From IMG/VR virus record IMGVR_UViG_3300021964_000015: 64,000 nt of DNA; one strand, written 5' to 3'. The DNA is from a virus. A program made the position numbers and the translations under genes. This document shows positions 9,002 to 30,560 of this stretch, piece after piece (position 1 is the first letter of the stretch; the number at the start of each line of letters is the position of its first letter). Under the pieces are notes generated by a model. The model made no database searches. It had not been told where the DNA came from and worked only from the letters and a program-made list of their open reading frames with translations.

Positions 9002-9766
9002 TCAAGCCCCTTTATCCATAGAAATTGTGAAGGGCACACCACCTGGATAGTGGTCAAAGAAGAACTGTTGAGTCTTTTGGACCATCACACCAGCTTGTGC
9101 CACCAGTTCATTGGCATCAAGGCTCACCACTTGCGCTTCTTGCCCTTCGCCAGTGTCTGGATCGTAAATGGCAATTGCACAATGAGCCTCATCAATCTCA
9201 ATTGAATACATCTGCTCAATGGCCTGCACGTAGCTGCCAAGTTGCATTTTGTAGTCAGCCAATTGATACGTGGGCTTTTCCTTGTAGCTGGTTTTCCAAT
9301 CAAGCAGTGCATAAGCACCATTTTTCATGGTTGCCAGCATGTCAAATGTGCCGGAATAGCCAATCTCTCTAGAAGGGCAATACCAACCAATGGCACTTTC
9401 CACCAACAATGGTTCGTTGATGGAATCAAGGAAATTTTGGATGGAAGTGTAGTAAGGCATATATTGAGGAGCCTGTTCAAAATGCTCCTCAATATCTTCC
9501 CCATTGAACAAATCCTCCAATACGCCATGAAGCCAATTGCCACGTTCGACAGCATTACGAGTGCGGCGATTCGCCTCTTGATCACCCACTCTCTTTCGCC
9601 AGTTAATTAGCGCCATTGTTTTACCAATGGGAGCAGTGGCTGATGCAACTGTCGTCACAGAAGGCAAGACTGCGCCTTGTGGTACATTTGGGAAATCATC
9701 AGAAACGTAATATCGTTTCTTATTGATTTGAAGCCTGTTTGGTTCAAAACGAGCGAATGGTTTCAT
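9002..9766 (-). CDS. PD-(D/E)XK exonuclease
   Basis: LPSVTTV..RGNWLH..YSGTFD..LLDWKTS..QLGSY. Confidence 0.88.
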   Translation of the reverse strand: MKPFARFEPNRLQINKKRYYVSDDFPNVPQGAVLPSVTTVASATAPIGKTMALINWRKRVGDQEANRRTRNAVERGNWLHGVLEDLFNGEDIEEHFEQAPQYMPYYTSIQNFLDSINEPLLVESAIGWYCPSREIGYSGTFDMLATMKNGAYALLDWKTSYKEKPTYQLADYKMQLGSYVQAIEQMYSIEIDEAHCAIAIYDPDTGEGQEAQVVSLDANELVAQAGVMVQKTQQFFFDHYPGGVPFTISMDKGA

Positions 9767-14946: not shown

Positions 14947-15127
14947 CATCGAATTGTCTGATGAAGAATGGAATGAAATGGATGCCATAAGGAGGGCCAT
15001 TGGGGATGGCCCTCCTGCCGTATCGTTTGAAAAAATGGAAAGGTTTTCTGAATTGTTTGTAAGAACCTTGCCATATGAAGGCGATACAATTGCATCAAGT
15101 ATTACGATTGACAATGCCACAGCCTGA
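14897..15127 (+). CDS. hypothetical protein
   Basis: Overlapping chain; start probably ATG 14936. Confidence 0.6.
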   Translation: MTMERKTIKKAKKMPHDIELSDEEWNEMDAIRRAIGDGPPAVSFEKMERFSELFVRTLPYEGDTIASSITIDNATA

Positions 15128-15839
15128 AATTCACTTTTCCAGCAAGGAAGAATGTACGCGCTATGCAGTGAAAGTATTGGTTGATGCTGGCATGAGGCCA
15201 GAGGAAATTGAGCGCGTAAGAGTGAAAAATAAGCCTGGTGTCAATATGGCAAAAGATCTCGTTGGTCTTAGGCGATATATGGTGCAAGAGCTTCTTGCTG
15301 CCAATATGAGCAATCGTCAAATTGCTGATGCATTGCAAATTGGTAAAGACACTGTAAATGCTGATAGACATCACGCTAGAGCTTTATACACTGAAAAACT
15401 ACTTGCGTCCGCAGACGTGCATCGGGCACGTCTGCTCAAGGAGCAAATGGATTTAAAAGAAAAGGCCCTGGAGAATTTTGAACATAGCAAACGGAAACGC
15501 ACCATCACTTTTCAAGATGGCGAAGAAAGCAATGGCAGACAAAGTATTCGTATTGAAGAAAGTGCTGGTGATGTGGGCTTTTTAAATGTTGCTAAAAATG
15601 CATTGGTGGAACAGGCTAGGTTGTTGGGCCTGCATGAATTGAAGCGTGAAGAGCAACAAGATAAAACTTATCAACAATTCCTTAAGGATTTGACCGTCAC
15701 CATTGACAAGGAAAAACAGCTCAATAGTGCTGATGAGCTGCGTCAAAATGCAGTGCCAGTGGATGTTGTAGAAGAAGATGCCAATGCAAGTCCAAATGTA
15801 ATCATGCCTTCTAAAGATTCTTTTAACCTTGATGCTTGA
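15114..15839 (+). CDS. HTH protein, terminase small subunit candidate
   Basis: HTH MSNRQIADALQIGKDTVNAD, helical middle, GD..FL....ARLLGL pattern. Confidence 0.55.
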   Translation: MPQPEIHFSSKEECTRYAVKVLVDAGMRPEEIERVRVKNKPGVNMAKDLVGLRRYMVQELLAANMSNRQIADALQIGKDTVNADRHHARALYTEKLLASADVHRARLLKEQMDLKEKALENFEHSKRKRTITFQDGEESNGRQSIRIEESAGDVGFLNVAKNALVEQARLLGLHELKREEQQDKTYQQFLKDLTVTIDKEKQLNSADELRQNAVPVDVVEEDANASPNVIMPSKDSFNLDA

Positions 15840-17758: not shown

Positions 17759-17789
17759 TCTTCTTCGTTTATAAAACAAAAGGCCCCCT

Positions 17790-17948
17790 TTAAGGGGCCT
17801 TTTTTAATGACCAATTAGTGTCGCCAGGAATTGGTTCTGTCCCATAGTCATAAGTGTCATAATCTTCATCGTTCCTTGGATCATATATTTCGCCATTGCG
17901 TAACCATCGTGCAAGGCGTTCGCGTTCTTGTTGTGCAGACAATTTCAT
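17790..17948 (-). CDS. small acidic hypothetical protein
   Basis: GGAGG before ATG 17948; ends in a bidirectional hairpin at about 17778-17806. Confidence 0.6.
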   Translation of the reverse strand: MKLSAQQERERLARWLRNGEIYDPRNDEDYDTYDYGTEPIPGDTNWSLKKAP

Positions 17949-17980
17949 ACATCCCTCCCATTGCCCTTTCATTATCGCGC

Positions 17981-18195
17981 AAAAGAAAAGGAGGGCTTTC
18001 GCCCTCCCTCTCTTTATGGCTTCCGATGAGCGATTTAGCAGGAGAAGATTCTCGACTGCAGATACAACGTGCTCCTGAGACTCATGCGTCTTGGTTTGAT
18101 CGCAACGATCGCACCCACGTTGTCACGCCCGTCCACCCTTACAGCTCGCTGCACAAGGCAACGAGGGAAGCCGTTAAGCCTCCAGGACCAACCAC
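17981..18195 (-). ncRNA. putative structured ncRNA with pseudoknot
   Basis: Extended -10 TGgTACTAT (18202-18210), several complementary stems, GAAA-loop terminator with U tract (17981-18007). Confidence 0.65.
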
Positions 18196-18345
18196 TCAGA
18201 AATAGTACCACCTCTCACTCCCATCGTTCCTCGTGAACCATGTAGGAATGATGAAGCACACGCCATTGCTCATTGAAATGGGCCACAATGGTGAAACTGC
18301 GCCTTGGCGACTTGCGCAGGCTCCTGGACTTACTTTTCTTTATTG

Positions 18346-18702
18346 ATGCTTCGTTTAATTTCCTCCGTTTTGCTGCTCAGCGTCATTGCACCACATACGC
18401 AAGCAGCCACTTTTCAATGCGGCCAAGCTTCACACTATGGCATTGGTGATGGCTATCACGGTCAACGCACTGCAAGTGGTGAACGTTTTGATGCCTATGC
18501 AATGACAGCAGCTCATCCATCGCTACCATTGGGCACCAAAATCCTCGTCAAGAACCAAGCAAATGACAAAGACGTGCTGGTCACCATCAATGATCGTGGT
18601 CCGTACATCCATGGTCGCATCGTGGATTTGTCTTATGGCAGCTTTTCTCGCATTGCCCATCCTGGCCAAGGCGTTGCTGATGTGTGCCTGATGGAGTTGT
18701 AA
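18346..18702 (+). CDS. rlpA: RlpA-family (double-psi beta-barrel) lytic transglycosylase
   Basis: Signal peptide; GQASHYG, TASGERFD..AMTAAHPSLP.GT, VTINDRGPY, RIVDLS. Confidence 0.9.
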   Translation: MLRLISSVLLLSVIAPHTQAATFQCGQASHYGIGDGYHGQRTASGERFDAYAMTAAHPSLPLGTKILVKNQANDKDVLVTINDRGPYIHGRIVDLSYGSFSRIAHPGQGVADVCLMEL

Positions 18703-30400: not shown

Positions 30401-30415
30401 GGTTGTTCTCCACAG

Positions 30416-30470
30416 CCTAGACCCCGTTCCATGTCTAGGGTGCATGCAACCTGTCGCCAGGTCGAACGTA
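30416..30470 (-). promoter_or_regulatory. glutamine-II (Downstream-peptide) riboswitch
   Basis: 5' CGUUC can pair with loop GGAACG; stems ACCUG-GCGA-CAGGU and CUAGAC/GUCUAG; upstream of a YRGV.Y peptide. Confidence 0.8.
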
Positions 30471-30486
30471 AATTCATCCTATCAAA

Positions 30487-30560
30487 TACCCCCAACAGGA
30501 TTCGAACCTGTACTGTGGCGATTTTAAGTCGCGTGTCTCTACCAGTTGGACTATGGGGGC
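30487..30560 (-). tRNA. trnL: tRNA-Leu(TAA), short variable loop, no encoded CCA
   Basis: GCCCCCA/TGGGGGT-A acceptor, GTC/GAC D-stem, CTTAAAA loop, ACAGG-TTCGAAT-CCTGT T-arm. Confidence 0.9.

Follow-up and report, generated by a model that had tools for sequence, protein, structure and literature searches.

What kind of gene, if any, lies on the minus strand between the RlpA-like gene and the small ORF of this viral genome? The original prediction was of a structured RNA standing alone there, with an extended -10 box and an intrinsic terminator of its own, no credible ORF and a fold that matched no known family. We examined these claims in the window (the whole stretch of DNA analysed, 64,000 nt) and in homologous loci.

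In the window, an extended -10 promoter box, TGGTACTAT, occupies 18202-18210 on the minus strand and includes the -10 hexamer TACTAT (18207-18202). The 5' start of the RNA is predicted at ~18196-18199, immediately ahead of helix P1, and 4 nt separate the box (18210-18202) from the structured core (18197-18014, minus strand; 184 nt and 11 helices), which was delimited by a covariance-model match and by covariation. The core leads into an intrinsic terminator (17981-18015, minus strand), a G+C-rich hairpin with a GAAA loop and then a U-tract. From promoter to terminator, the whole predicted transcript on this strand is ~215 nt. The predicted fold of 230 nt has a free energy of -94.7 kcal/mol (z = -4.5 relative to dinucleotide shuffles).

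Homologues were collected stepwise. A first set came from exact-pattern scans of IMG/VR and JGI metagenomes with conserved blocks; members were confirmed with a covariance model, R1, and chance matches were rejected. Divergent members were added from loci fetched through the neighbouring small protein, and a second model, R2, was built. In IMG/VR, a pattern based on the junctions matched exactly 98 times, and all 98 matches were recovered by the covariance model too. The final collection of 96 loci (88 distinct sequences) scores 59-195 bits with R2; the core in the window reaches 187 bits with R1 and 171.5 with R2. A covariance-model search of the window returned 18014-18197 as its sole match, i.e. 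the RNA is present in one copy.

The flanking signals are kept in these relatives. A TGNTANNNT box lies 4-7 nt ahead of the model start in all 28 first-set homologues with flanking sequence, and 4-12 nt ahead of it in 69 of 70 second-set homologues; its position is therefore kept in 97 of the 98 homologues with an upstream flank, including RNAs that score only 59-110 bits. A hairpin and T-run follow the RNA in 69/69 downstream flanks of the second set (L309 has no flank). Promoter box and terminator thus hold their positions even where sequence identity is low. The terminator stem itself is exchanged among relatives (GGGAGGGC, GGCGGGC, GGGGGGC or GGGCC) with no matching change in the core. No reading frame across the RNA is open throughout the homologues. 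Compared with the window, 116 indels have a length that three does not divide, versus 42 of triplet length. A 124-codon plus-strand ORF (17831-18205; TTG start), antisense to the small ORF and the RNA, is spurious because no frame is conserved and most indels are non-triplet; it is unconserved and should not be annotated. The promoter, the terminator and the absence of a credible ORF had therefore been read correctly from the window.

The homologues are all on viral or metagenome contigs related to the Synechococcus siphovirus S-CBS4, at least 100 relatives of which carry the RNA, in samples from lakes, estuaries and the sea. The genome in the window is itself S-CBS4-like and siphoviral, has a terminase and is 78.5% identical to S-CBS4 across the structural genes. 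In S-CBS4, gp092 and gp093 are separated by 416 bp that carry no annotation, and the counterpart of the RNA falls inside this gap. The defining features of the family are all found in the window: the P1/P1b/P5 junction strands, the extended -10 box, the terminator and the divergent RlpA-like gene. As a separate observation on this genome, the gene at 15075-15839 (plus strand) is named 'RNase E' in S-CBS4 (phrog_645); Pfam shows only weak GerE and HTH_23 helix-turn-helix matches, and the name looks unreliable.

To evaluate the structure, we used alignments of 29 distinct sequences (A7), 56 distinct sequences (A8) and all 96 matches, 88 of them distinct (A9). In A7 and A8, which were fitted to the structure model and whose pair counts are thus biased in its favour, 98.3% and 97.3% of cells are paired and 39 and 45 of the 54 pairs, respectively, carry compensatory changes; some of these counts are also inflated because all the homologues share one virus lineage by common descent. 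In the A8 controls, slid partners pair in 38-49% of cells and 0/500 shuffles attain any of the observed measures. In an independent ranking by mutual information across the 88 distinct sequences, the top 23 pairs all belong to the model. Some G-U pairs never vary, which fixes the strand of the RNA. Covariation across the 88 distinct sequences supports 11 helices.

The core consists of two domains, which are joined where P1, P1b and P5 form a three-way junction; counting all junctions, the fold that covariation supports includes three of the three-way and one of the four-way type. P1 is the true closing stem, formed by GUGGUU (18190-18195) and AGCCAU (18016-18021), with the consensus GUGGUY/RGCCAC (18195-18190 with 18021-18016); in A8, 100% of its cells are paired and 6/6 pairs have compensatory changes. 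In domain A, P1b, P2, P3 and P4 meet in a four-way junction that is closed by P1b (GUCC, 18185-18188, with GGAC, 18131-18134). Our first model had instead paired UCC with a 3' GGA (and GA with UC). P1b replaced it because 16 distinct sequences switch from C:G to U:A, for which the rival pairing gives A-C mismatches; the second pair of P1b is C:G in 69 distinct sequences, U:A in 16 and U:G in 2, and is never broken. P2 is the covarying hairpin GGAGGC/GCUUCC (18166-18183), with the loop UUAACG in the window and UUAAUU, C-GAAA-G or others in relatives. P3 is the hairpin CUCGUUG/CAGCGAG (18145-18165), in which 5/7 pairs covary and the loop varies in length. P4 (18131-18144) has a stem of only 2 bp, capped by a GNRA tetraloop (GUAA in the window), then GU and the GGAC of P1b; the family consensus of this region is CCGNRAGGGUGRAC, and the stem pairs never vary.

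Domain B comprises P5, then P6 with its two arms, and P10. P5 (GGGCG, 18126-18130, with CGCUC, 18028-18032) covaries at 5/5 pairs, which rank among those with the highest mutual information. P6, ACAACGUG/CACGUUGU (18064-18123), encloses P7/P8, P9 and the junction J9/6; all 8 pairs covary in A8, and the stem exists in at least nine different sequence versions that all pair fully. In the same alignment, 2/3 pairs of P7 and 3/3 of P8 covary in the P7/P8 arm (18093-18115), as do 4/4 pairs of the P9 hairpin (18078-18091; loop GCAUGA). J9/6 is the purine-rich strand CAGGAG (18072-18077). P10 (GCAG..GAG / CUC.CUGC, 18038-18059) varies in length among relatives, is 96.5% paired and has 4 covarying pairs. 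The strand AUCGGA (J5/1, 18022-18027) then joins P5 to P1. As an observation in its own right, 83 of the 88 distinct sequences of A9 have four self-complementary nucleotides (CAUG, CUAG or ACGU) in the P9 loop (18082-18087); this palindrome might permit loop-loop dimerisation.

Much of the structure originally drawn from the window alone survives: the hairpin CUCGUUG/CAGCGAG is P3, the 8-bp stem ACAACGUG/CACGUUGU is P6, and the hairpins GAUCG/CGAUC and AGAC/GUCU are P8 and P9, all backed by covariation. The closing stem and the pseudoknot, its only two wrong details, do not survive. The supposed closing stem GGCUUCC/GGAAGCC is paired in 89% of cells, yet 127/500 shuffles reach that value and one pair is unpaired in 15/29 sequences; GGCUUCC is the 3' strand of the local hairpin P2. 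The supposed pseudoknot between CAGGAG and CUCCUG is paired in 87.5% of cells; at three of its positions, 5-7 sequences fail to pair, and it loses to the local hairpin P10, which uses CUCCUG.

The mutual-information scan of the 88 distinct sequences gave no convincing non-nested pairing. Isolated pseudoknot candidates in A9 (columns 168-234, 188-239 and 76-234) were rejected, since their neighbouring positions do not pair. The third base of the P4 loop has its top mutual information with P1 pairs 2 and 3, in the direction expected of a tetraloop receptor. Docking of the P4 GNRA loop on P1 was nonetheless rejected: on clustering, the signal proved to be mostly shared descent, and there are many exceptions within clades.

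Conservation is concentrated at the junctions. The J5/1 strand AUCGGA is identical in 88/88 distinct sequences, and the P4 loop is GUGA, GUAA, GCAA or GCGA, i.e. GNRA, in the same 88/88. Essentially no variation is seen in the junction strands (GGUYCU, CCGNRAGGGUGRAC and AUCGGA), whilst both the sequence and the length of the helices change freely. From invariant junctions and exchangeable helices we infer that the function lies in the three-dimensional core and that the RNA most likely acts in trans.

Has such an RNA been seen before? A search of the whole 64-kb window with Rfam 15 (4227 models) at gathering threshold gave nothing at the RNA locus. The only two Rfam matches in the window lie away from it: a Glutamine-II riboswitch aptamer (43.9 bits) directly adjoining a tRNA (55.7 bits) at 30415-30560 on the minus strand. 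At E <= 10, the RNA region gave merely sub-threshold matches driven by the terminator, and eight divergent homologues likewise matched nothing credible in Rfam 15. That the RNA resembles no known family, as first suspected, therefore holds for the window and for these homologues. Amongst 185,579 species genomes, the junction pattern had 46 matches, 44 of them in non-cyanobacterial and mostly G+C-rich genomes; the two in cyanobacterial MAGs (L135 and L144; 2/46 inspected) both fall within coding sequence and were rejected as host homologues. Covariance-model searches of 151 sampled Prochlorococcaceae genomes for a homologue in the host family returned only noise, a G+C-rich match of 19-23 bits in which P1b and the GNRA loop are missing. 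A literature search found no paper describing the RNA; a catalogue of 10,006 unnamed viral candidate RNAs (PMC10690425) may already include the motif. Judged from these sequence comparisons, the RNA is a previously uncatalogued family with no relative in Rfam.

Orphan structured RNAs of phages and bacteria include GOLLD, ROOL, raiA and the T4 stable RNAs C and D. Like the RNA described here, these are stand-alone, have an elaborate covarying fold, are often phage-borne and were of unknown function when found. The new RNA has no sequence or model similarity to them (no Rfam match), its core of ~185 nt is far smaller than GOLLD or ROOL, and it is confined to one cyanosiphovirus lineage, beside an RlpA-like gene. 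The pRNA of phi29 is ~120-175 nt, has its own promoter and terminator and a three-way junction, and is conserved in structure over sequence; in all of these respects (a phage-encoded RNA with its own start and stop signals, a three-way junction and structure better conserved than sequence) the new RNA is similar. However, pRNA occurs in phi29-like podoviruses with protein-primed DNA, whereas the new RNA is in S-CBS4-like siphoviruses with a terminase, and the mutual-information scan of the 88 distinct sequences contained no covarying pair of complementary loops of the pRNA type; of loop complementarity, only the palindrome in the P9 loop was seen.

Three other identities were rejected. PrrB/RsmZ (RF00166) has sub-threshold matches over the 3' half and terminator of three homologues (13.2, 25.0 and 21.9 bits), and shares with our RNA a GGA in an unpaired segment, J5/1. 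An RsmA/CsrA sponge of this type is not supported: the scores of 13-25 bits compare with a gathering score of 44, the GGA in J5/1 is the sole invariant unpaired GGA, and the second GGA, in J9/6, is missing from many members. The simplest explanation of these weak matches is the terminator. A 6S RNA would be expected to form a long rod with a central bubble, closed by its two ends, in contrast to the four-way and three-way junctions found here, and there was no 6S match. A type III antitoxin RNA (ToxI-like), which would consist of tandem repeats ahead of a toxin gene and a terminator between them, was rejected because no tandem repeat was found and what is encoded downstream is an acidic peptide of 52 aa with one predicted helix.

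The reading that we favour, and consider reasonably probable, is of an uncatalogued stand-alone gene for a folded non-coding RNA, restricted to S-CBS4-like cyanosiphoviruses, which acts in trans via a partner-binding junction core. The extended -10 promoter would launch transcription at the foot of P1 and the intrinsic terminator would stop it ~215 nt on. The 184-nt core would then fold, with domains A and B arranged around the P1/P1b/P5 junction, and this three-dimensional core would carry the function by binding a specific partner. The partner may be a protein, of the host or of the phage, or else a small ligand, with the RNA acting in trans during infection. On the conservation pattern, action in trans through partner binding at the core is the most likely mode and linear, seed-type pairing with a target is less likely. 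More speculatively, the junction core (GGUYCU, GNRA-GGGUGRAC and AUCGGA) might be an active or binding site, in which case the RNA would be a ribozyme of a new class, or a sensor of ligands or proteins, deployed in trans to reprogramme the host; we regard this more specific proposal as possible, if on the unlikely side.

Of the alternatives to the partner-binding core, that of a base-pairing sRNA survives best, though we think it quite unlikely. Here AUCGGA or J9/6 would pair with host or phage mRNA, and the remaining fold would merely provide stability. A predicted stand-alone transcript with a Rho-independent terminator is what is seen with many bacterial sRNAs, and the 6-nt strand AUCGGA is both invariant and unpaired. 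Yet 11 covarying helices and a GNRA hairpin far exceed the architecture of a seed-type sRNA, and the invariant segments are junction strands within the fold rather than an exposed 5' or loop seed. Moreover, by hand check, there was no conserved complement at the translation starts of the RlpA-like gene or the small ORF, where the sequences differ among clades.

A ribozyme, self-cleaving or acting on another substrate, with the invariant junction strands as its active site, would account for the same features of the core; the size, complexity, strictly invariant junctions and freely varying helices are the pattern of a catalytic RNA. This is less probable still: no Rfam ribozyme family matched, neither a pseudoknot nor any other non-nested pairing was detected in the mutual-information scan, and the locus lacks the context expected for processing (repeats, an intron or a mobile element), with no tandem repeats.

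The remaining alternatives depend on the neighbouring genes. On the plus strand, an RlpA-like (DPBB) lipoprotein gene (18346-18702; Pfam DPBB_1, E = 9e-23) is upstream of and divergent from the RNA, as it is in 28/28 first-set and 68/70 second-set loci. The N-terminus of its product resembles a signal peptide. The divergent intergenic region (18211-18345 in the window) contains a conserved CACAAT box, which is probably the -10 element of the RlpA-like gene, and the two promoters are back to back in essentially all loci of the family. An obligate link between RNA and RlpA can be discarded: the RNA was found beside none of 70 other viral RlpA-like genes (45-63% identity). Downstream, on the minus strand and outside the RNA, is the small ORF (17790-17948; 52 aa, MKLS...YGTEPIPGD...), which is followed by a strong bidirectional terminator (17778-17803). 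The small protein is acidic, gave no Pfam, PHROG or Atlas lead, and is modelled by AlphaFold (pLDDT 59) as one N-terminal helix with the rest disordered. Its family has an invariant C-terminal motif, YDxxxYGTEPIPGDxxW, and relatives in at least 151 viral stretches; one relative, in a T4-like cyanomyovirus, sits directly after nrdB.

In most relatives, as in the window, the small ORF is 3' of the RNA on the same strand (gaps of 61-135 nt, and 179 nt in L011). Together with a conservation centred on junctions, which resembles an aptamer, this order of promoter, RNA, terminator and ORF would suit a cis-regulatory leader of the ORF, i.e. a riboswitch or other terminator-controlling element in which a sensed signal sets terminator formation. 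The new RNA shares with riboswitch aptamers (SAM-I, cobalamin, lysine) invariant junction strands, exchangeable peripheral helices, a GNRA loop free for tertiary docking and an intrinsic terminator directly after the closing stem. However, the motif ORF is convergent with the RNA in 20/70 second-set loci, all in one clade (e.g. L349, 754-1029, minus strand), so that part of the family has no gene under control. This largely refutes the leader, to which we now give very little credence. L178 has no small ORF, and in L011 a second, different terminator and a 110-nt insert separate the RNA from the ORF (9302-9480), which suggests recombination at the terminator. Since the conserved core does not change in compensation when one terminator stem is exchanged for another, there is no conserved anti-terminator; a crude search for terminator/anti-terminator duplexes found no consistent partner site and, unlike for the riboswitches, no alternative terminator pairing is conserved. 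The RNA locus also matches no riboswitch model in Rfam 15. Relatives of the ORF occur without the RNA in 75/80 fetched loci (L203-L282) as well as in a cyanomyovirus, which also removes an obligate RNA-ORF link, and the promoter-like leaders between terminator and ORF differ among relatives.

Those leaders have features of their own. In many relatives (e.g. L001, 3500-3570; also L004, L126, L174 and L205), the interval from the RNA terminator to the small ORF holds a conserved element in which a palindrome, CTAGCTAG or CCAGCTAGAC, precedes a TATAC-like box; from its sequence, this resembles an operator-bearing promoter. The window and the L010-type relatives have GCGCGATAAT in its place, together with a strong Shine-Dalgarno sequence.

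Least probable of all is a put-type processive antitermination RNA, whose nascent fold would modify RNA polymerase to read through the terminators that follow: a structured RNA directly behind a promoter and directly before one or two terminators has the right position, but in the convergent clade read-through would give nothing except transcripts antisense to the gene next door, transcription in the window would meet a strong bidirectional terminator after a single small ORF, and the fold is unlike the two-hairpin put RNAs.

The RNA is therefore a stand-alone gene rather than a leader, as first proposed, given that the small ORF lies on the opposite strand in one clade; the two terminators of L011 and the absence of the ORF from L178 agree with this. 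That the RNA keeps so strictly to its place between the RlpA-like gene and the motif ORF might reflect a local regulatory role. Since both protein families occur without the RNA, the linkage may instead have no functional basis and simply be a gene order that was inherited.

Much primary production is due to picocyanobacteria, whose siphoviruses are poorly understood. RNAs of comparable size and complexity have repeatedly proved to be ribozymes, sensors or parts of ribonucleoproteins. The family described here also marks the 416 bp for which the S-CBS4 reference genome gives no annotation, and the covariance models R1 and R2 can be used to annotate the S-CBS4-like phage lineage. As one member sits in S-CBS4, a cultured phage propagated on Synechococcus sp. 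CB0101, the family is directly testable. If the junction core does prove to be an active or binding site, an RNA with such a site would be in use by a widespread group of aquatic cyanophages.
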